Shown here piece by piece: positions 5,648 to 57,590 of a stretch of 59,500 bases of DNA. Source of the DNA: a virus; the UHGV virus genome UHGV-0209830. One strand, written 5' to 3'. The notes under the pieces were generated by a model that ran no database searches, had not been told where the DNA came from, and was given only the letters and a program-made list of their open reading frames with translations. Every line of letters begins with the position of its first letter. Positions within the stretch are counted from its first letter, which is position 1. The position numbers were made by a program, and so were the translations under genes.

Positions 5648-5736
5648 CATTGCGCTACCTTCCCTACCCGCTATCGTTGAGGTCGTGGGTGCTGACGGGA
5701 AATGAGCAACCCTCCAGCACACATAATTAAAGCTAT

Positions 5737-6444
5737 TCAGAATTTGATCACTCCACTCACAGCCCCCTTTAACGCGCTTGTAGCCATGCCAGCGGCACCG
5801 TTGACCAAAGCAGAAACACCTGAGCCTGCGGATGTGTATTTCTGGAAAGTGATTGGATATGACAAGAACTCTGACACCTGGTCTCGTGAGCGGGTGATTT
5901 CCCCAAGTTGAGTGGGGAATACGCGCATTTCCTCTTCCAGTTCTTTACCGCCATCCTGAGTTACCCGGTAGAGCCGGATCTTCATTAGATATTCAGGAGG
6001 AAGGTTTATTGTTCCGTCCGGGTTTGTCACGCGGGAACGACGCTCTTTGAACCAGTTCATGATCTTGCCGTCTTCGGTATCCCTTACGGTCATCGTGACT
6101 GGTCCGGCGGTGACGTAGGTTGGCTTGCTGAACTCTACGCTACCTATCACCTTGTTTTCTGTCTCGATATTTCCGCTGCTGTAGGTGATATCCTTCACGA
6201 ACATATCGAAACCGTTCAGACCGTCCACTTCAACCGTCCACTGCCATCCCTGGGCGTAACGAATACGCATAGCGGCAGCAACAATATTTTTCCCGTAGGC
6301 AATATCGCTGCTGTAGTTCCCACTTACCCCGCCGCCGGATATTGCTTTATCCAGAATGTCGCTAATGAGGTTGCTGGTGAATGATTTTGTGTTAAATGAC
6401 AGTGCGGTGGTCAACGTTCTGCCAACGCTGCTGAAAATACTCAC
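5737..6444 (-). CDS. Hypothetical tail-associated protein (235 aa)
   Basis: ORF track; co-oriented in tail gene block. Confidence 0.45.
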   Translation of the reverse strand: MSIFSSVGRTLTTALSFNTKSFTSNLISDILDKAISGGGVSGNYSSDIAYGKNIVAAAMRIRYAQGWQWTVEVDGLNGFDMFVKDITYSSGNIETENKVIGSVEFSKPTYVTAGPVTMTVRDTEDGKIMNWFKERRSRVTNPDGTINLPPEYLMKIRLYRVTQDGGKELEEEMRVFPTQLGEITRSRDQVSEFLSYPITFQKYTSAGSGVSALVNGAAGMATSALKGAVSGVIKF

Positions 6445-12832: not shown

Positions 12833-12963
12833 GGTTAAGCCCTAAATTCGGGCGCGGCGTGAAGGTTCTTTTGACGGGCTAACAATACCTACTTTGTGAT
12901 TTAGTCAATAGTTTTAGTAAAATAAAATCTATTAACAGTCACGTTGTTATGTGATTTAATTTT

Positions 12964-12980
12964 AATTTTCTAACACAAAA
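12964..12980. promoter_or_regulatory. Operator-like motif copy (attttctaacacaaaat)
   Basis: Member of the dispersed TGTGTTAGAAAAT-like family, directly upstream of ORF at 12991. Confidence 0.45.
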
Positions 12981-32264: not shown

Positions 32265-32298
32265 ATGTTAGAAAATCAAAATTGATTTTCTAACACAA
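32265..32298. promoter_or_regulatory. Near-perfect palindromic operator-like site (gttagaaaatcaa-N-ttgattttctaac) in divergent promoter region
   Basis: Best palindromic copy of the dispersed motif. Confidence 0.55.
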
Positions 32299-35976: not shown

Positions 35977-36010
35977 ACGTTAGAACGTTGATTTTAGTTT
36001 TCTAACATAC
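35977..36010. promoter_or_regulatory. Operator-like inverted pair upstream of ORF 36050
   Basis: gttagaacgttgattttagttttctaac. Confidence 0.45.
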
Positions 36011-45002: not shown

Positions 45003-45019
45003 GATGTGTTAGAAATTTA
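45003..45019. promoter_or_regulatory. Operator-like motif copy (gatgtgttagaaattta)
   Basis: Dispersed motif family, upstream of ORF starting 44960. Confidence 0.4.
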
Positions 45020-45021
45020 AT

Positions 45022-46050
45022 TTACGAATCCATCAAGCGGCTATTAGCCCCCACAGACACACCGCCACGGCGCAGATACCGCATAAGTGTTTCCGGTTTC
45101 TTCCAGGTTCCTTCCTGCATGATCTCCACCATAGACACCTGCTTTTCAGCCATATCAATAGCGGCCCCGACGCGTGCACTATGCCCGGTCCACGTCCGGT
45201 ATCTTCCTTTGTTTGGCGTAGCATCTCTTTTATTCAGCAACCCCCAGGCGTCGCTGAATATTTTCTCCATTGCAGGTGCAGTAAGGGGCGTTGTCGTAAT
45301 CCTGGCCTTATTGCTACGGTGTATCGGCGGGAACAGCACCGCGTCAGGATGTTCACGAAGCCCGGAAACATCCAGCCAGTCATTCAGCACAGCAGTAGTG
45401 CGACGGGAAAGCACCTTATCAAGCCCGGCGGCGGTCGTTATTGTCTTCGTGTGTGAAATATGTAGCGTGACAGTGTCACCTGTTTGGTCCAGATCTCCTA
45501 CACGAATACGCGAGATTTCCGACATACGCATCAGCGTATTGTATGCAACAAAGAGAAAAGCCCGGTTGCGCTGGTCCACCAGCCGTTCTGACCTGGACAG
45601 CAGGACGTCGAGCAGTTTCAGGTCGTCCCACCGCAACGGTATAGCCTGGCCTGTTCGCTCGCCTTTTTCCGTTGCCGCTTCACGCCGGATGCGCCGCATG
45701 GCCAGAGACACACTTTTATCGTCCGACAGCGGCGGGAGGCCACATTGCGAAAGCAGCATGTTAAGCATGGCATAGTGCTTATCAATGGTGGTCGAAGCCA
45801 GATCGGCATCATGCAACTGAAGAAAATACTCGCGGGCCATTTCTGGTGAGATCGGAAACCAGGCAAGCTGGCGAGCGTGACACCAGCGCGCCCAGGAATG
45901 AAACACCAACCGGAGGTCGCGCAGAGTATTCGGCGCATAAGCCCCCTGGTCATTCATGAACCGCATAAAGTTTTCTGCGGCTTCCTGGTACTCTTTGCCA
46001 ATGTTGCGCAGAAAACCACCGGAACTGCCAGAGATAATCAACTCACTCAT
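45022..46050 (-). CDS. cre: Cre-like tyrosine site-specific recombinase
   Basis: Roughly half-identical to recalled P1 Cre including WTGHSARVGAA.DMA and RIRV.D motifs. Confidence 0.85.
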   Translation of the reverse strand: MSELIISGSSGGFLRNIGKEYQEAAENFMRFMNDQGAYAPNTLRDLRLVFHSWARWCHARQLAWFPISPEMAREYFLQLHDADLASTTIDKHYAMLNMLLSQCGLPPLSDDKSVSLAMRRIRREAATEKGERTGQAIPLRWDDLKLLDVLLSRSERLVDQRNRAFLFVAYNTLMRMSEISRIRVGDLDQTGDTVTLHISHTKTITTAAGLDKVLSRRTTAVLNDWLDVSGLREHPDAVLFPPIHRSNKARITTTPLTAPAMEKIFSDAWGLLNKRDATPNKGRYRTWTGHSARVGAAIDMAEKQVSMVEIMQEGTWKKPETLMRYLRRGGVSVGANSRLMDS

Positions 46051-51274: not shown

Positions 51275-51849
51275 CAGAAAGCCTCCCAGTCAGTCGCGAT
51301 AATATCCACACCAGTTGCAAACCAGTCTGTCTGCGCCTGTAAATCACCATTCATCATTACCAGGCGAGGCATCACCATCACATCGCACCCTTCCACAATA
51401 TCGAATGCCTCTTCCGGCAAGAATTCGAAGAGCTTTTCTTTGCTGCCAATGCTGCCACGGAACATCGATATATAGCTCCCTTTAGGCCATGATGTCCGCC
51501 GGGCATCAAGCCCTTTCATCATCCAGTAAAAAGCCGAGGAAAAAGGGATATTCTTTTTGCCAATGATTACATTATTCGCTTCTGTGTACTTCAGGAACTT
51601 AACTAACCTTACCATTGACTCGGATAACGCAACGTATGGCTCATGATTGATTGCTGACACGCTTACACCGTGCAATCCAACGCTTACCACTGTCATATCG
51701 CCGCTCTGTGCGGTTTCGATATTGACGCCTTTGCGAACTAATGAGGCGTAAAGTTCCTCTCGCTTTTGGGTCCAGCGTTCCCGCTTCCCTATGAAGTCAC
51801 TCAAAATGAGATCTTCTTCTGCATATGCGTTATCGTTCGCCATTAACAT
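51274..51849 (-). CDS. Hypothetical protein (191 aa)
   Basis: ORF track; strong RBS aaaaaggag. Confidence 0.5.
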   Translation of the reverse strand: MLMANDNAYAEEDLILSDFIGKRERWTQKREELYASLVRKGVNIETAQSGDMTVVSVGLHGVSVSAINHEPYVALSESMVRLVKFLKYTEANNVIIGKKNIPFSSAFYWMMKGLDARRTSWPKGSYISMFRGSIGSKEKLFEFLPEEAFDIVEGCDVMVMPRLVMMNGDLQAQTDWFATGVDIIATDWEAF

Positions 51850-51969
51850 AACGTCTCCTTTTTACACACGCGACCATCTCTCGGTTAAACCGATAGAGAT
51901 GTCGAAACTTCGTATTAATTAAGGGTTACAGCCTGAGCGGCTATATGATGAATTGAAAGGAGTTGTGGC

Positions 51970-51984
51970 GGTGGTGCCTCCACC
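51970..51984. other. Conserved-loop hairpin, copy A (ggtgg-tgcct-ccacc)
   Basis: One of three hairpins with identical loop and covarying stems. Confidence 0.5.
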
Positions 51985-52302
51985 TGCCAGGTTAGCCACT
52001 CCTGGCGACGTCACTTATCAGAACGTAGTGAATGAAAATGGCTTCGTCACGAGCGCATAGCCGCAATTACCACAACGGAAACGGCGCTCGCGTTAATTAA
52101 ACGCCTTTTCCTGTTGTGCGCCGTACTCTTCCGGCTGTCACACCGAATCGCCAGGGTGGTGAGTCCTCGGTCCGACGATATGAACGGGGCTTGCACATTC
52201 CGGCTACCTGGTTTGTTGCCTGAGCAAGGGGAAAAGGTAACCCCTTTAACGTCACCAGACCGCTAACGACGCATGTGCCATACGCCGTGTTACAACCAAA
52301 TA

Positions 52303-52378
52303 TGGTGGCCCCTACCGGACTTGAACCGGTGACCGTGCGATTATGAGTCGCCAGCTCTAACCACTGAGCTAAAGGGCC
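52303..52378 (-). tRNA. tRNA with CAT anticodon, tRNA-Ile2 (lysidine) type
   Basis: 76 nt cloverleaf with encoded CCA; anticodon loop CTCATAA; near-identical to recalled E. coli ileX; Met not excluded. Confidence 0.8.
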
Positions 52379-52532
52379 AGATTACTGTTAATTCCGCTTA
52401 CGCTTTTTGCCAGGACCGCGTAAGGCTTTTGCTGCTTGCTCGACCCCATATGCAACCACCAGCAGAAATAAAAATGTCCACCAAGGGTTCTTGTCGGCAA
52501 ACGTCCAAAATTCCATCATGTTCTCTATTTGG

Positions 52533-53360
52533 TTATTTCACCGGAACAAACGGTACAGCGGTATTACTGGTCATATACTGCGGTAGCGTTCCGTTCCATT
52601 TGTTGATCGCTTCCAACTCCATAACGCCGGGGTTCTGGCGCAGAGCTTCACCGCGTAAACGAATGGCATCAGCTTCAGCCTGGGCTTTTGTGCGAATGGC
52701 ATCGGCCTGTCCGGCAGCTTCTGCGCGCAGCATGTTGGCTTCTGCTTCGCGTTGCTTGACTTCCTGCTCGCGTTGCAGAGTTTTCTGGTTCGCCGTGACT
52801 TTGGCATTAATGCTGTCGATAACGGTTGGCGGGTACTCCGGCTTGCCCACATATGAGAGGCTCATTACCTGAATACCGATGGGCGTCATTTCTTCCTGGA
52901 TGTCTTTAAGAGCTGCATCCAGTAGTTCAGACTTGCCACCGTCGATAAATTTGTCGGTGGTCATTTTGCTGGCCAGTCGGTTAAGTGCGTCGGCAATCTT
53001 CTGGCGCAGGTCGGTGTCGGTAATGTCATCCACGCCTTTGCGGTAGGTCTGAAATACAGTTGTGACTTTTGCCGGATCAACCTTGTAAGCTACACCAATG
53101 TGGTAACCAATTGTTGTCCCGTCGCTCATTTGGAAGCTGAACGGATCATCATAGGTCTTCATTTGCTTAAAGGTCGGGAAGATATAAACTTCTGTGTTCC
53201 AGCCTGTCCAGTAGCGACCAACGCCAACTACTTCGCCGACACCTTTATCATCCCCCAGCTTATTTACTTTGATCCCTACATTGCCTGGTTCTACCCGGTC
53301 GCATCCGGTCAGACATAAAGAACCAAAAATAATCGCTGCACTAATCAACGTTTTTTTCAT
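52533..53360 (-). CDS. SPFH/band-7 domain lipoprotein
   Basis: Lipobox LTGC signal; SPFH-like core followed by A/E/Q-rich coiled coil. Confidence 0.55.
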   Translation of the reverse strand: MKKTLISAAIIFGSLCLTGCDRVEPGNVGIKVNKLGDDKGVGEVVGVGRYWTGWNTEVYIFPTFKQMKTYDDPFSFQMSDGTTIGYHIGVAYKVDPAKVTTVFQTYRKGVDDITDTDLRQKIADALNRLASKMTTDKFIDGGKSELLDAALKDIQEEMTPIGIQVMSLSYVGKPEYPPTVIDSINAKVTANQKTLQREQEVKQREAEANMLRAEAAGQADAIRTKAQAEADAIRLRGEALRQNPGVMELEAINKWNGTLPQYMTSNTAVPFVPVK

Positions 53361-53578
53361 TAATCAATTTCCTGGATTTTTTTGCGAAAAAAGACTACTG
53401 CAAAAGCCGGGTAAATGAGCGCGAGAAGGACTCCCAACAATACAAGTATTGTGCTGTCAGATGAGATCATATTTGGCAAAAGCCAAACATACAGAACCAT
53501 TGACACAATCAAACAGAGGACGACATAAATATATAGCCGCACCCATAGCGTTCGACATTTGTTCGGATTGTTCTGCAT
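53360..53578 (-). CDS. Small two-TM membrane protein (72 aa)
   Basis: ORF track; stop overlaps start of SPFH gene. Confidence 0.45.
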   Translation of the reverse strand: MQNNPNKCRTLWVRLYIYVVLCLIVSMVLYVWLLPNMISSDSTILVLLGVLLALIYPAFAVVFFRKKIQEID

Positions 53579-53618
53579 CCTCTCACTCCATTGTTTAACG
53601 AATAAAAAAGCTGCGGTG

Positions 53619-53633
53619 CCTGGTGCCTCCAGG
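53619..53633. other. Conserved-loop hairpin, copy B (cctgg-tgcct-ccagg)
   Basis: Same loop as copies A and C, stem covaries; about 45 bp upstream of small membrane gene. Confidence 0.5.
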
Positions 53634-53841
53634 TGACGTTAACCAGTTAACAATTAACGCCGGGATGTTTGATTTAACCACTAATAAGGATTGTTTTAAC
53701 TGTTCCGCGTGCGCTTAGCCGCATTCACCGCAATGGTAAGAGCACTTGGCTGGCTGGGCGGCGATGACGCCTGTACGCATTTGGTGATCCGGTTCTGCTT
53801 CCGGCATTCGCTTAATTAGCCAAATACTCTTAACGTTGCGC

Positions 53842-53928
53842 TGGCGGAGAGTAATGGAATCGAACCATCATCGCTTGCGCAATGGGACGGTTTTCAAGAC
53901 CGCTTGAGCACCATGCTCCCTACTCTCC
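53842..53928 (-). tRNA. Atypical type-II tRNA-like gene with TGA anticodon (tRNA-Ser(UGA)-like)
   Basis: 87 nt; acceptor GGAGAGT/ACTCTCC, G discriminator, CCA, T-loop TTCGATT, anticodon loop CTTGAAA; D-arm shortened and variable arm irregular. Confidence 0.45.
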
Positions 53929-54393
53929 GGCCGTTGTGGTGGCCGGTACTGAATCTCCGGCATACGGTGCAGCCAATTAGGACTACGGACGATCACCGCT
54001 CGCGAAAGGGAAGATTTGCGGCCGCATTTCCCTAACATCCAAGAAAGCTATCGCATCAGTCTGCGAATCCACCACAACGTTGAGAACACTGGTTGTCACG
54101 CTGCCTCGCGACCTTTATTCATAGATTGGGATATGACCCCGTTACGCCAATGTTCTCAACGTTGTAGTGCCGGTTACGGTTCCGGCCAGGCTTCTTCCTC
54201 AACGGGGTGTTCTCCATACGGACTACCGTTTATTGGTCGTTCCTGCGGTTTATGTTGTGAAGCCAGATGCTTATCTTCTGGTTGCTTCAAAGAGCTGCAC
54301 TTCATCACAACGGTAAGGGTACTTCGTAGGGATTCGAACCCTCTGCCAAGCTCGGCGATCTCCGACGTCGCAAAATACCCTTACCTGTTGTGT

Positions 54394-54469
54394 TGGTGCC
54401 GGTTAACGGACTCGAACCGCTGACATCCTGCTTACAAGGCAGGCGCTCTACCAACTGAGCTAAACCGGC
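54394..54469 (-). tRNA. tRNA-Thr (TGT anticodon)
   Basis: 76 nt cloverleaf, anticodon loop CTTGTAA, T-loop TTCGAGT, encoded CCA. Confidence 0.8.
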
Positions 54470-54471
54470 AT

Positions 54472-54547
54472 TGGCGATGGTGGATGGATTTGAACCATCG
54501 ACCCGTTGATTAACAGTCAACCGCTCTAACCGCTGAGCTACACCATC
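54472..54547 (-). tRNA. tRNA-Asn (GTT anticodon)
   Basis: 76 nt cloverleaf, anticodon loop CTGTTAA, T-loop TTCAAAT, encoded CCA. Confidence 0.8.
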
Positions 54548-55257
54548 ACTTGCCGGGTACGTCTCCGGCGAGGGCTTCCACCTCCGTATGCTTTTCGGCG
54601 CACCGCGCCCTGGCTGCAATTCGGTAACAGGGGATGCATAACCCTGGCTTCCAGCGTGATTAGCGCCTTCAGCATGACGGGATATACCCGTTGCAAGACA
54701 TTATCCCAGAAAGCCATTAACCAATGGCTGTTACGCGGGAGGGACGTAACAGGTAAGGGCGCTGACCAGAAAGACCTGACCCTTCTCATTCATCTGGTTA
54801 ATCACACCAGCGCCCTTGCCTGTTATGCCTCCCCGTTCCCTAATACACAGACGGGGACACTCTGCGGTCGATTTTTTGACGGGGGACGACTCATACCCCG
54901 TGGCGTCAGGCTTCTTAGGCCGCTACCATCATCAGATCATCGTTTGCATTTACTTTAATGGTCGGTTTCTAAACCGCCGCAAAGTCGCTAACCATGACGA
55001 AAACCCTAAAAAAGCCCACCCGAAGATGGGCAAATACGCTACGTATCACACAAGAAAGAAGCCGACTGCCTGAACTGGATTCACTTTCAAATGCCCGCTG
55101 AAAGGGATCACAAGTCGGCTTCTTTCTTGATGCGGCACTCTCTCCGCCCGTCACCGCTCTGTCTCGGTTGTCGCGTTTGCCACGCCAGCCATAACGAGGT
55201 TTAAAGTCTTTGCACGTTCCCATCACTCGACTGCCGTCTGAGGCTGTTCGTTGCAGC

Positions 55258-55272
55258 GGGGGTGCCTCCCCC
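55258..55272. other. Conserved-loop hairpin, copy C (ggggg-tgcct-ccccc)
   Basis: Same loop, third stem variant. Confidence 0.5.
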
Positions 55273-55755
55273 TGGGGATATCCCCGGCCTTACCCCATTC
55301 TTTCAAGACACAATGCAAGGCCACATCCGCATAGGTGCATTACCGCAACATTAAGGAGGCATAGGGCGGTTACCTTTTGCCCTGAGTCTCCTTAATGTTG
55401 AAGATGTGCATTGATGATTAGATGCAGCATGTACCGTTACTCTCTGCCGGACCATCATCAATGAACACCTTAAAAAGACCTTCCGTGGCTCAACATGGAC
55501 TGTCGTTTACTCCGCAAAGTGCTCTCTCTGAAACCACTTTCCGCACTAAACCTGCTGAACTTTGGCCTGCACGGTGCCAAAGCGTGCTCTTGCATTGCTA
55601 TACTTTTCTAACGCTTTAATTTGTTAAATGCTGGTGGGCGAACAATAACCAATAAGTGACTATCAAGCCCAGCAAGCGAAACGTGGGTGCCGCCCACCAG
55701 CAAGGAAAATTCTATGTTAAGTTACCTTCACAATCAATACGTTCGAATCGTAATT

Positions 55756-55774
55756 TTAGATTTCTAACACATTA
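55756..55774. promoter_or_regulatory. Operator-like motif copy at upstream edge of the RNA island
   Basis: ttagatttctaacacatta. Confidence 0.4.
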
Positions 55775-56995
55775 TTTCCCGTAAAGATCTTCTACACCCC
55801 CATTCTTCTTATCCCATTCGTTCGCCCATACCCGGCAAGCGTCAATGATTTCCTGACGACGATCTCCTTGCATGAACGGAATGCTTTCATGGAAACAGCT
55901 TGGAATGCAGGCCACACTGAATACAGTATCAAACTCCGTCTGCTTGATTGCCTCCAGCGTCTCCGGACGCATTTTTAATTCATCGATTGGCGCATCCTTA
56001 GAGTCCATAATCCGGCGATATAAGCGCGGAAAATCCGTCTCCAGGTACGCCATAATTTTATCTGCGAGACATTCGTCTATGTCGGTATTCCAGTCCTTTT
56101 CGAAGCCCGGCAGGCGATAGTAAAGCGGCGTTCCCCATACCGATGGGATCACATCCATCGTTAACAGGCGATTGGTTCTGATTTGTTGATGGTAATTAGC
56201 CGTCAGCAGTGCTTCGCCACGCTGCCCAGTTTCCGCAACCAGGCCGTGCGGATACTCATGGATGTAGGCAATGGCATCCCGCCCATCATACATAAGTGGA
56301 AATGTCTCTGGTCTTTGTCCCATGCCACAAGCACGGTTCAGATCGTGACCAAGCTGTGAGCACTCTCGCTTTAATGTTTCGATAATGCTCTGTGCTGTAG
56401 CCAACTTTTTACGCAGTGTGACGCCTTCGCCTTGATAATCAATGCATTGCTGATTGAGCTTGGTTAAACGCTCTTTTAGTTCCCGGCGCTCTCTTTTCAG
56501 CGTGCGGTTATCCTTCTCCGCAACATCCAGCCGCTTTGTCAGGCTGGGCGGATAGTCTTTTTTGTAACGGTTCAAATCGGCTTCGGCAGATTTACGCAGT
56601 GTATTTGCCTGTTCAAGACGCGCTTCCAGATTGCCGATCTCATTACGCATATTCACGGCAAATTGATTAACTGCATCACCCAGGCTTTCAACTGTCGCTG
56701 ATACGCCTGTGACTTGTGAAAAACGGATCAAGCCATCATTAACGGCTTGTTGGTATTCCTCAAACTGATCCACCAGCTTATTGTAATCAACTGCCCCATC
56801 ATCAAGCAGCTTGTTGATTTCCGCCACCAGGTTATCTGTAGTGGCAATGACACTCTCGTGCAGTCGCTTTGACAGGTCATCACCCGGATTCCGTTTCTGT
56901 ATAAGAGCGATTTGTGTGCGCAGCGTTTCAATTGCTGTCGAGATAATTTCCAGATTAGAAGTATCAGTGTGTTGACTCATTGCTGTTCCCGTCAC
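55772..56995 (-). CDS. Hypothetical protein with coiled coil (407 aa)
   Basis: ORF track; operator-like motif just upstream. Confidence 0.55.
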   Translation of the reverse strand: MTGTAMSQHTDTSNLEIISTAIETLRTQIALIQKRNPGDDLSKRLHESVIATTDNLVAEINKLLDDGAVDYNKLVDQFEEYQQAVNDGLIRFSQVTGVSATVESLGDAVNQFAVNMRNEIGNLEARLEQANTLRKSAEADLNRYKKDYPPSLTKRLDVAEKDNRTLKRERRELKERLTKLNQQCIDYQGEGVTLRKKLATAQSIIETLKRECSQLGHDLNRACGMGQRPETFPLMYDGRDAIAYIHEYPHGLVAETGQRGEALLTANYHQQIRTNRLLTMDVIPSVWGTPLYYRLPGFEKDWNTDIDECLADKIMAYLETDFPRLYRRIMDSKDAPIDELKMRPETLEAIKQTEFDTVFSVACIPSCFHESIPFMQGDRRQEIIDACRVWANEWDKKNGGVEDLYGK

Positions 56996-57005
56996 CTTGT
57001 TAAAT

Positions 57006-57022
57006 TAGTTTTCTAACATATT
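57006..57022. promoter_or_regulatory. Operator-like motif copy upstream of ORF 56995
   Basis: agttttctaacatattt. Confidence 0.4.
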
Positions 57023-57060
57023 TTATTAGTTTGATGACGGTATCGGAAGATGCAATAAAC

Positions 57061-57088
57061 AAAAAACCCGCTAATTGGCGGGTTTTTA
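57061..57088. terminator. Rho-independent terminator (bidirectional-type)
   Basis: aaaaaacccgc-taattg-gcgggttttt. Confidence 0.7.
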
Positions 57089-57093
57089 TGCAA

Positions 57094-57408
57094 TTACTGT
57101 GTTGCAGCCTCATAAATAAGATACGCGATAAATACAGGTACGATGGCCCATTGCAGCAATGAAAGTAGCCTCATTACTGTTATTGGGGTAACTCCATCCA
57201 CGTATTGTTTCTCTGACATTTTCCCTAACCAACTAACCGACAACAGTGCCGAGTTTTCACCCAATTCCAGCTCTCTGAGAGCTTCACGGATTAACGGCGC
57301 TGTCACAGCCTTAACCGGTGTGCTCAACGTGATACTCCGCGTCCTCCCCGCATCGTCAGCGAACGCCAGACTCACATAATATTTTTTGCTCAATGTACAA
57401 ACTCCCAA
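57094..57408 (-). CDS. Hypothetical protein with C-terminal TM helix (start uncertain)
   Basis: ORF track; possible shorter start at MSEKQY; followed by terminator. Confidence 0.35.
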   Translation of the reverse strand: MGVCTLSKKYYVSLAFADDAGRTRSITLSTPVKAVTAPLIREALRELELGENSALLSVSWLGKMSEKQYVDGVTPITVMRLLSLLQWAIVPVFIAYLIYEAATQ

Positions 57409-57590
57409 TCATCAGCGCTTGCACTTTCCGGGGTTATGTGAACCTTATCGCCAGTAACAATATTGCGAGCTTCAAAACTTCCATTGATACGTTTCGAGAT
57501 CTCAATACATAGAGCCTGTTGCCATGAGCGACGCCGAGCGATAGCATTAGTTCCTGCAGGGATAAGTTCAGCCACGTTAAGTAAACGCAA
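57390..57590 (-). CDS. Hypothetical small protein (66 aa)
   Basis: ORF track. Confidence 0.3.
   Translation of the reverse strand: MRLLNVAELIPAGTNAIARRRSWQQALCIEISKRINGSFEARNIVTGDKVHITPESASADDWEFVH

Follow-up and report, generated by a model that had tools for sequence, protein, structure and literature searches.

What does a 1.2-kb stretch of phage DNA specify that holds no credible open reading frame (ORF) and is rich in inverted repeats? This question is raised by positions 54548-55771 of the virus genome UHGV-0209830, which was analysed as a stretch of 59,500 nucleotides (the window, in the following). An initial annotation, made from the letters of the DNA, had noted the repeats and had proposed a structured RNA, a second origin or a recombination site. 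BLAST matched the 1224-bp ORF-less stretch to Escherichia phage D6 at 96.5% identity and to about 100 non-mobilizable plasmids of E. coli, Salmonella and Shigella at up to 98.9%; these identities mark the window as a phage-plasmid of the D6 kind, related to P1. Read along the minus strand, the region begins after the stop of a pmgS-like morphogenesis gene (55772-56995) and ends before tRNA-Asn (54472-54547). We present evidence that the main content of the region was overlooked: the 460 nt beside tRNA-Asn are a module derived from transfer-messenger RNA (tmRNA), the universal bacterial quality-control RNA for ribosome rescue. The region as a whole is probably composite, namely the non-coding leader of a minus-strand tRNA operon, which comprises a regulatory leader (Part A, 55771-55008) and a tmRNA-derived RNA (Part B, 55006-54548). 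Both parts are read on the minus strand toward tRNA-Asn, and all RNA features of the window described below lie on this strand.

The tag frame

The tmRNA-like module (54821-55006), as delimited by a covariance model named R1 and by BLAST, is composed of a 5' conserved domain (GGUUUUCGUC..GCGACUUUGCGG..UUUAGAAAC), a tag frame, a stop-codon hairpin and two pseudoknots. As read from the sequence and the alignment across phages, the resume context UAAAU (54952-54948) precedes the frame GCA AAC GAU GAU CUG AUG AUG GUA GCG GCC (54947-54918), which encodes ANDDLMMVAA and is closed by the stop codon UAA (54917-54915). As expected for a tmRNA, the internal frame resumes at an alanine codon, GCA, and has an end of the hydrophobic-Ala-Ala type followed by a stop. 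A conserved protein-coding frame in relatives, which the initial annotation had named as the finding that would contradict it, exists only as this ten-codon tmRNA-type frame, which is not a gene.

A scan keyed on the 5' conserved domain yielded 133 units with 32 distinct tag DNA sequences. The length of the tag is invariant in all 32 variants (10 codons plus stop), third codon positions vary in nine of the ten codons, first positions in six and second positions in five, and a single peptide, ANDDVVLMAA, occurs in eight different DNA encodings. The fixed length, the third-position variation and the multiple encodings are signs of selection on the tag peptide. A simple Nei-Gojobori count gave a ratio of non-synonymous to synonymous variation (pN/pS) of 0.60 in frame versus 0.99-1.89 in four shifted frames, and an AUG frame overlapping the tag showed no conservation.

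In pattern scans of viral contigs, the context UAAAU-GCA-AAC-GA was also found to head the tags of many permuted phage tmRNAs called by ARAGORN, e.g. ANDERFLMAA and ANDNVAFALAA. Tags of the family studied here resemble those of confirmed permuted phage tmRNAs (compare ANEERFLMAA with ANDERFLMAA); the enterobacterial group itself is not called by ARAGORN. In summary, the window carries an intact copy of a conserved, structured, tmRNA-derived RNA gene family whose tag frame is under codon-level constraint.

Structure of the module

The minus-strand RNA 54548-55005 folds more stably than shuffled sequences (z = -3.67; 0 of 100 shuffles). Within it, the stop codon of the tag is located in the loop of a hairpin, GGC-CUAAGAA-GCC (54909-54921), which is the arrangement of tmRNA helix 5; RNAalifold, applied to the family alignment, found a GC to AU change of the three-pair stem in seven sequences. 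In tmRNA, pseudoknots flank the message, and two H-type pseudoknots were found here 3' of the tag; a counterpart on its 5' side (PK1) could not be substantiated. Pseudoknot a (54867-54901) consists of the stem ACGGGG/CCCCGU, the loop of which, GUCG, pairs with a downstream CGAC. Pseudoknot b (54830-54866) consists of the stem CGCAGA/UCUGUG, whose loop UCCCCG pairs with CGGGGA.

Two types of module are distinguished: type A occurs in lambdoid, T1-like and other relatives, type B in the window, P1, Gamaleyavirus and the Erwinia phage phiEa2809. In an alignment of 17 type B sequences, the stem of pseudoknot b is paired in 100% of the cases with three double-changed pairs, and its loop-to-tail pairing is kept in 89% with two double changes. 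For the type B pseudoknots overall, 91.2% of the cells are paired and eight pairs are double-changed, some rows being misaligned by MAFFT. For 33 diverse type A relatives, 96.4% of the cells are paired and 10 of the 18 pairs are double-changed; the equivalent of pseudoknot a covaries in both stems, and in the crossing stem both variable pairs are changed on both sides (11 sequences have AU for GC, and six have GC for AU). This degree of pairing was reached by none of 500 shuffles, and slid controls gave at most 51%.

The minimum free energy structure predicts a P2-like closing helix, whose 3' strand (54646-54664) pairs with 54987-55005. In 11 P1/D6-type sequences its 17 pairs are kept to 97.7%, and five one-sided changes, of which the divergent Shigella plasmid L137 contributes three, leave the bases paired. 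As modelled, this helix resembles helix 2, which closes the tmRNA molecule. A possible partner for the 5' segment GCGACUUUGCGG was considered at 54012-54022; the 8-bp match is not conserved and was treated as chance.

The module is followed by a long-stem cassette, hairpin C (54738-54834), which belongs to the family CACAAC-AGGUAAGRGC ... GCYCUUAYCG-UUGUG; cassettes of the same type flank the module in lambdoid and T1-like phages. The initial annotation had listed it as a hairpin copy, and its arms could be located at 54738-54764 and 54808-54834 (27 nt each, 81% complementary). One compensatory change, UA to CG, separates its D6-type and P1-type copies. Note that the bases GGGGA at 54830-54834 are needed both by the loop-to-tail stem of pseudoknot b and by the base of hairpin C, which makes the two structures mutually exclusive; in type A relatives, the cassette begins past the pseudoknot and there is no such overlap.

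A tail of 190 nt extends from the cassette to the RNase P site of tRNA-Asn. It contains two hairpins in the position of a T-arm, both with 8-9-nt loops that are not T-loops and without an acceptor strand after them. The first, AGGG-UUAUGCAUC-CCCU (54629-54645), was aligned by eye to the canonical T-arm of the lambdoid locus L003, GAUGGAAGCC-GGUUCGAUUCCGG; the sequence UGGAAGCC ahead of it resembles the GAUGGAAGCC ahead of the L003 T-arm. In relative L084, its loop has shrunk to GGA. The second, GCCGG-AGACGUAC-CCGGC (54552-54569), lies 4 nt ahead of the 5' end of tRNA-Asn and represents a recurrent, T-arm-derived hairpin type: elsewhere, GCCGG..CCGGC hairpins take the T-arm position of tRNA-like modules, their stems covary, and some of their loops are the canonical UUCGAUU.

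Comparison with known tmRNAs

Model R1 was built from 33 type A members, none of which comes from the P1/D6 group. Its sole match in the window, 54821-55004 (minus strand, 97.2 bits, E 2.3e-18), covers model positions 1-172 of 172. Applied to five permuted tmRNAs confirmed by ARAGORN or Rfam, R1 matched the resume and tag segment with E-values of 7e-5 to 3e-3. In the reverse direction, the Rfam model of permuted tmRNA, RF04321, gave 24.4 bits for the window element at a gathering threshold of 47, and of ten further loci, eight had sub-threshold matches to it on the element, on the correct strand (23.6-39 bits). For comparison, 130.5 bits were obtained with a genuine permuted phage tmRNA. With RF01850, the window reached 12.4 bits (gathering threshold 84). 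Because R1 and RF04321 cross-match in both directions, we hold with high confidence that the module of Part B is derived from tmRNA, albeit it is not placed in a curated Rfam family. The scan for known RNA families suggested in the initial annotation had a twofold outcome: no family exceeded its threshold in the region, and RF04321 matched below threshold at the module. At permissive E-values, Rfam returned only tRNAs, a sub-threshold match to STnc100 outside the region, and microRNA matches on hairpins at chance level.

The element shares with the circularly permuted (two-piece) tmRNA of phages and bacteria (RF04321 / ssrA) the resume context, a tag of about ten codons that starts with ANDx or ANEx and ends in a hydrophobic residue plus Ala-Ala (or Val-Ala) before the stop, pseudoknots past the tag, and neighbouring tRNA genes in phage genomes. 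It differs in that none of the acceptor stem, the G3-U70 pair, the canonical T-arm, the CCA and the upstream acceptor piece was recognised in the window copy. Moreover, the RNA of T1-like relatives would begin at a predicted promoter right at the 5' domain, and the window element is flanked by long-stem cassettes, scores below the Rfam threshold and is not called by ARAGORN.

E. coli ssrA (RF00023), a standard one-piece tmRNA, has the tag ANDENYALAA. Features in common with it are the ANDx start and AA end of the tag, a loop resembling that of helix 5 in which the stop codon lies, a similar motif near the 5' end (UUUUCGUC..UUUGCG versus GGAUUCGAC..UUUGCG in E. coli), and a GGAA element ahead of the hairpin in T-arm position. 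In contrast to ssrA, the element has two instead of three pseudoknots after the tag and no end that could be aminoacylated. As the tag frame matches the host gene in its first 8 nt only, the module is not a captured host fragment.

Distribution of the module

BLAST homology breaks the region in two at 55034/55035. The right part (55035-55771) is confined to D6-like plasmids (120 records, 80-98% identity). The left part (54548-55034) is about 90% identical over 487 nt to P1 68855-69347, i.e. to the stretch between the C1-controlled ban promoter (Pban/Op72) with its 'dicF-like region' and trnA (tRNA-Asn). Conservation between P1 and D6 is highest in the tmRNA-like module, where it amounts to 96-97% over about 245 nt. 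The left part takes the same place and orientation as the leader of the P1 ban operon, ahead of tRNA-Asn and tRNA-Thr (trnA, trnT), and the operon is the D6-lineage counterpart of the ban operon. Unlike in P1, however, the C1 operator, the promoter and the 'dicF-like' segment are swapped for an unrelated leader of 740 nt with a motif and a promoter of its own. The P1 record leaves the tmRNA-like stretch unannotated except for the 'dicF-like region', a label that spans the terminator hairpin and reaches a few bases into the module; of that region, the window shares nothing but the terminator hairpin. DicF itself had no Rfam match at E<=1 in 51500-57500 nor at E<=10 in 54530-55140.

The core of the module (approximately 54830-55005) is 70-85% identical to sequences of unrelated phages, among them Ackermannviridae, Gamaleyavirus and siphoviruses of about 47 kb (292 phage records). 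It also occurs in lambdoid prophages of E. coli chromosomes, between the Q antiterminator and holin genes. The carriers comprise P1/D6 phage-plasmids, lambdoid prophages, and T1-like, N4-like and Vi01-like virulent phages; in Gamaleyavirus and Ackermannviridae phages the core adjoins tRNAs. A strict pattern, applied to one genome per species of 185,579 species, matched six contigs, four of which are from Enterobacterales (Escherichia, Pseudocitrobacter, Pantoea, Rouxiella). This result fits a mobile, phage-borne element.

The sequence upstream of the 5' domain depends on the lineage. Many lineages have a long-stem cassette there, and in Gamaleyaviruses the domain is preceded, at a distance of 25 nt, by a canonical T-arm (UUAGG-UUCAACU-CCUAA); in the window, only the terminator hairpin is found. 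In T1-like phages the module has its own, strong predicted promoter, TTGACA-17-TAGATT, with a start at about GAUAGUUUUCG, which argues for a discrete expressed RNA.

Candidate acceptor modules

A one-piece tmRNA was considered for the window copy and rejected, as a search by eye gave no acceptor stem that joins the 5' end to sequence past the T-arm-like hairpins. In the lambdoid locus L003, the canonical T-arm pairs with a strand past the second cassette, which indicates that this T-arm is part of a separate tRNA-like module.

Two tRNA-like elements occur in the window. Between tRNA-Thr and the next module, at 54306-54392 (minus), a cassette CACAAC-AGGUAAGGGUA ... UACCCUUACCG-UUGUG surrounds a tRNA-like element with the canonical T-arm GAGGG-UUCGAAU-CCCUA and a 7-bp acceptor-like stem, UAUUUUG/CGAAGUA, which contains a U3-G70 pair and is followed by C-CC. 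ARAGORN does not call it, and its P1 counterpart lies on the opposite strand of the annotated plp ORF. Directly 5' of tRNA-Ser, at 53933-54078 (minus), a tRNA-shaped module is closed by GUUGUGGUG/CACCACAAC and has the hairpin GCCGG-AGAUUCAGUA-CCGGC in T-arm position. Among the fetched loci, modules of the latter type come in 42 variants, with covariation in the T-stems and, in part of the variants, canonical UUCGAUU loops; six of the 42 are followed by CCA. More generally, the relatives of these tRNA-shaped modules in other phages show T-loops of the canonical type, covariation in the T-stems and a CCA that is encoded. To judge from these features, the two modules might act as acceptor partners of the tag RNA.

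Further long-stem cassettes are located at 54074-54165 and 53730-53839 (minus) and in the loci L003, L006, L034 and L087. Their ends are of the CACAAC/GUUGUG type, each has a bulged base, and the insert at the tip varies; they punctuate the tRNA clusters of several phage families. Their stems vary in sequence yet stay paired (ACAACGUUGAGAACA/UGUUCUCAACGUUGU; GCAACGUUAAGAGUA/UGCUCUUACCAUUGC); the cassettes could be RNase processing signals.

The contig L087, which also has a sub-threshold match to the Yersinia small RNA Ysr251, contains at about 5680-5850 (minus) a tRNA-like RNA of about 165 nt, 3' of its tag module. With a canonical tmRNA-type T-arm (GCGGG-UUCGAUU-CCCGC), an acceptor stem GGGUGAU/GUCACUC and a vestigial resume-like motif, AAAU-GCA-AAU, that has no stop, it looks like a degenerate one-piece mini-tmRNA.

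Interpretation of the module

On the basis of its position, the module RNA would be co-transcribed with the tRNAs. The operon continues downstream of the leader with tRNA-Asn, tRNA-Thr, further tRNA-like modules, tRNA-Ser and tRNA-Met/Ile2(CAU). RNase P cleavage at tRNA-Asn would free the 3' side of the upstream RNA, and RNases that cut the cassette stems may contribute to its release. The RNA could then serve as the message half of a phage-specified trans-translation, by which nascent chains on stalled ribosomes in infected or lysogenic cells would receive a phage-specific degradation tag; for the tRNA-like part, it would depend either on a partner RNA or on a domain diverged beyond recognition. 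That the module represents a functional RNA family under selection is very likely. Whether it is active in tagging in the phage of the window has, judged from its sequence, somewhat less than an even chance. More tentative still, and rather doubtful at present, is a split tmRNA in at least five kinds of enterobacterial phages, in which a tag-message RNA would cooperate with separate tRNA-shaped acceptor modules and the cassettes would be processing signals.

Several observations weigh against this interpretation. No acceptor stem, G3-U70 pair, canonical T-loop or CCA was found in the window copy, ARAGORN called no tmRNA, and the RF04321 score is only about half of the gathering threshold. For the 5' domain, a conserved pairing partner was not found in 20 loci, the best complementary sites being at inconsistent positions, and the closing helix shows one-sided substitutions only, with no double changes. 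Within the P1/D6 lineage, the few variants of the tag all alter the peptide (D to N, V to A, A to P), and none is synonymous. In one relative, L084, both the 5' domain and pseudoknot a have been lost. The high identity of the module between P1 and D6 may reflect a recent exchange of the module rather than constraint, and the terminator at 55008-55031, if efficient, would limit expression of the module barring read-through.

Some of these points would also be expected if the P1/D6 module were a decaying remnant of a formerly complete phage tmRNA, with the region now used only as leader and processing scaffold for the tRNAs and downstream genes. In favour of a relic are the failure to find a tRNA-like domain, the exclusively non-synonymous tag variants within the lineage, the persistence of the truncated L084 and the indel-rich L134, and the terminator hairpin that stands in place of the upstream cassette or T-arm of other lineages. 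Decay is difficult to reconcile, however, with a module that is the best conserved part of the stretch shared by P1 and D6, with both pseudoknots and a 10-codon frame that 39 of 44 sampled P1/D6-type copies have kept intact, and with the substitutions in the divergent L137, which preserve pairing. We consider a relic unlikely, though it is the main alternative.

A functional RNA that does not tag is less plausible. Acting as a decoy or regulator, it would bind SmpB, ribosomal protein S1, RNase R or stalled ribosomes and thereby modulate trans-translation of the host, or it would stabilise or process the tRNA precursor, and a tmRNA-like message domain with pseudoknots and no acceptor end would suit such a role. 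The mycobacteriophage DS6A encodes a tmRNA without coding sequence (CDS) that inhibits the host tmRNA (PMC11915505), a precedent which demonstrates that partial tmRNAs with modulatory roles exist. Both are phage-borne partial tmRNAs; however, they retain opposite halves, as DS6A keeps the tRNA-like domain without a tag frame, whereas the window keeps the tag frame without the tRNA-like domain. What a decoy leaves unexplained is the synonymous codon variation, the fixed length of ten codons and the stop codon in a hairpin loop across phage families, and we regard it as improbable.

The D6-specific leader

Part A can be interpreted as an RNA leader, which would set transcription into the tRNAs, be cut up by RNases, or both; it might also release small RNAs. 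At its upstream edge, just past the stop codon of the pmgS-like gene, lies the motif GTGTTAGAAATCTAAAAT (55753-55770, minus), which is kept in seven relatives and corresponds to the operator-like motif placed at 55756 by the initial annotation. Six copies with at most two mismatches occur in the window, compared with 0.11 expected. A pattern scan of the window with the form GTGTTAGAAANNTAAAAT located the motif at 12959-12976, 32265-32282, 35991-36008, 45006-45023 and 55753-55770; it can be described as GTGTTAGAAA..TAAAAT. It is unlike the -22 box of P1 late promoters (AAGTTACTT), and the P1 C1 operator ATTGCTCTAATAAATTT has no match in the whole window at up to three mismatches. Judged by recurrence and placement, the motif is probably a repressor operator or class-specific promoter element of the D6 lineage, in place of the C1 operator. 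The only promoter-like site predicted in 53500-57200 is a sigma-70-like one, TTGATT - 17 nt - TAGAAT (55709-55737); TTGATT is invariant in all seven D6-type relatives and the -10 hexamer nearly so. A weaker second copy of the motif, the direct repeat GCGTTAGAAAAGTATAGC, is found at 55596-55621, of which GTTAGAAA is conserved in the D6-type alignment.

The inverted repeats of the initial annotation could be reproduced and supplemented. The first leader hairpin (55629-55702), detected by an inverted-repeat search, has a perfect 12-bp stem (55629-55640 with 55691-55702) and an interior of 50 nt; its two innermost stem pairs are double-changed in relatives (CG to GC, GC to AU). A hairpin with arms of about 18 bp (55401-55471; repeat pair 55398-55418 with 55454-55474) is paired in 95.8% of the cells in relatives. 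The 12-bp repeat already noted (55347-55358 with 55388-55399) is the core of a longer pair, 55346-55367 with 55379-55400 (22 nt, 86% complementary), within which the nested GGGC/GCCC was found as well; this hairpin (55346-55400) is 96.2% paired and has three double-changed pairs. The adjacent near-invariant block of several hairpins (55245-55345; GGCCUU..AAGGCC, GGGGAUAUCCCC, GGGGGAGGCACCCCC) is the best-conserved piece of the D6-specific leader in the D6-type alignment and is retained even in the divergent Shigella plasmid L137. The perfect 17-bp repeat (55051-55067 with 55113-55129, 45 nt between the arms) forms a hairpin at 55051-55129, four stem pairs of which are double-changed in relatives. 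Finally, an intrinsic terminator, GCCCAUCUUCGGGUGGGC + UUUUUU (55008-55031; hairpin 55014-55031, not listed before, as were neither 55629-55702 nor 55398-55474), is conserved in P1 and D6 and closes the lineage-specific leader; homology to P1 starts there.

The minus-strand RNA 55008-55705 has a folding energy of -270.3 kcal/mol, compared with -229.5 +/- 5.7 for shuffled sequences (z = -7.16; 0 of 20 shuffles). Across seven D6-type sequences, the five leader hairpins are paired in 92.8% of the cells and 11 pairs are changed on both sides; none of 500 column shuffles reached the observed value, and slid controls were paired to at most 51.5%. Coming from seven related sequences, this covariation is good but not overwhelming. 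Both the fold energy and the compensatory changes, which answer the conservation and covariation check across related phage-plasmids that had been suggested, are in agreement with the structured RNA proposed initially. The proposed transcription toward the tRNA genes is likewise supported, since the promoter-like site, the terminator, the tRNAs and the conserved module are all on the minus strand.

Other long, structured, ORF-free RNAs beside phage tRNA genes include the T4 species 1 and 2 RNAs, GOLLD and ROOL. The region differs from GOLLD and ROOL in having no Rfam match to either or to any other family, and from all of these RNAs in that the D6-specific leader is restricted to one plasmid lineage.

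The palindromes could also act at the level of DNA and mark a second origin or a site-specific recombination site, which we consider very improbable. Long perfect palindromes are indeed present, and the interior of hairpin 55346-55400 (approximately 55359-55387) corresponds to the D6 version in reverse complement, shortened by about 9 nt. This flip, the sole hint of recombination, lies between the 12-bp inverted repeats AACATTAAGGAG; the D6 orientation of the core is found in five relatives. In addition, the cassette stems, with CACAAC...GUUGUG ends, a bulged base and a variable tip, may loosely resemble integron attC sites. For an origin, however, neither iterons nor tandem repeats, C1 operators or an origin-like repeat architecture were found; direct repeats are short and two-copy only, the GC skew is negative across the region without a change, and the GC content is 0.45-0.54 (DnaA boxes were not specifically searched). 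G-U wobbles and pairing specific to one strand fit an RNA, all elements are co-oriented with promoter, terminator and tRNAs, and no recombinase gene is adjacent.

A missed protein-coding gene can practically be dismissed: short ORFs of 30-100 amino acids exist on both strands, but neither D6 nor the RefSeq plasmids carry any annotation in the region, alignment indels are not multiples of three, and none of the 12 ORFs of at least 30 amino acids stays intact across six relatives of 76-95% identity, in keeping with the absence of a credible ORF noted at the outset. In 55000-55771, such ORFs have stops or frameshifts in at least two of the six relatives; this includes a 30-residue frame in a near-invariant stretch, which is frameshifted in two.

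Annotation of the neighbouring tRNA genes

ARAGORN lists the minus-strand tRNAs past the region in the order tRNA-Asn, tRNA-Thr, tRNA-Ser(UGA) and a tRNA with the anticodon CAU; the operon's first tRNA, tRNA-Asn (GUU, 54472-54547), was found by both ARAGORN and Rfam. In the D6 record MF356679 (locus L002, 3295-4000), tRNA-Ser, -Thr and -Asn are annotated on the plus strand, while ARAGORN places them on the minus strand at near-identical coordinates; the strand in the GenBank annotation is probably wrong. The tRNA with anticodon UGA at 53842-53928 (minus) is a tRNA-Ser according to ARAGORN, and its best Rfam model is that of selenocysteine-tRNA (46.6, threshold 47). The match to the enterobacterial small RNA STnc100 lies at 53612-53732 (minus; 40.4 bits, gathering threshold 47, E 2.5e-6). 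A 2026 preprint describes the STnc100 family as frequent in prophage Q-holin regions.

Significance

In surveys based on ARAGORN and Rfam, tmRNA was detected in about 2% of phage genomes, mostly those of marine phages and mycobacteriophages, and two-piece phage tmRNAs mostly in marine phages (PMC9004378). A 2025 paper on the tmRNA database mentions phages only for the CDS-less form of DS6A (PMC11915505). In the literature searched, which did not include the P1 genome paper, we found no mention of the five commonest tag peptides, and nothing relevant on P1/D6 transcripts or on tmRNA-like RNAs in enterobacterial phages. As far as searched, the family of tmRNA-like RNAs in enterobacterial phages thus appears to be undescribed. 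It is missed by ARAGORN, by the Rfam thresholds and by PGAP, and is recovered by model R1.

If our interpretation is correct, a divergent derivative of tmRNA has gone unrecognised in P1, which is among the most studied phages. It would further be present in common genera of therapeutic phages and, located between Q and the lysis genes, in the lambdoid prophages of pathogenic E. coli. Three questions would become open to experiment: whether ribosome rescue and protein tagging are re-programmed by phages, whether a tag message functions when no tRNA-like domain is covalently joined to it, and what role the repeated long-stem cassettes play in phage tRNA clusters. Should the split system exist, an infecting phage could carry out trans-translation by itself, using a degradation tag of its own.

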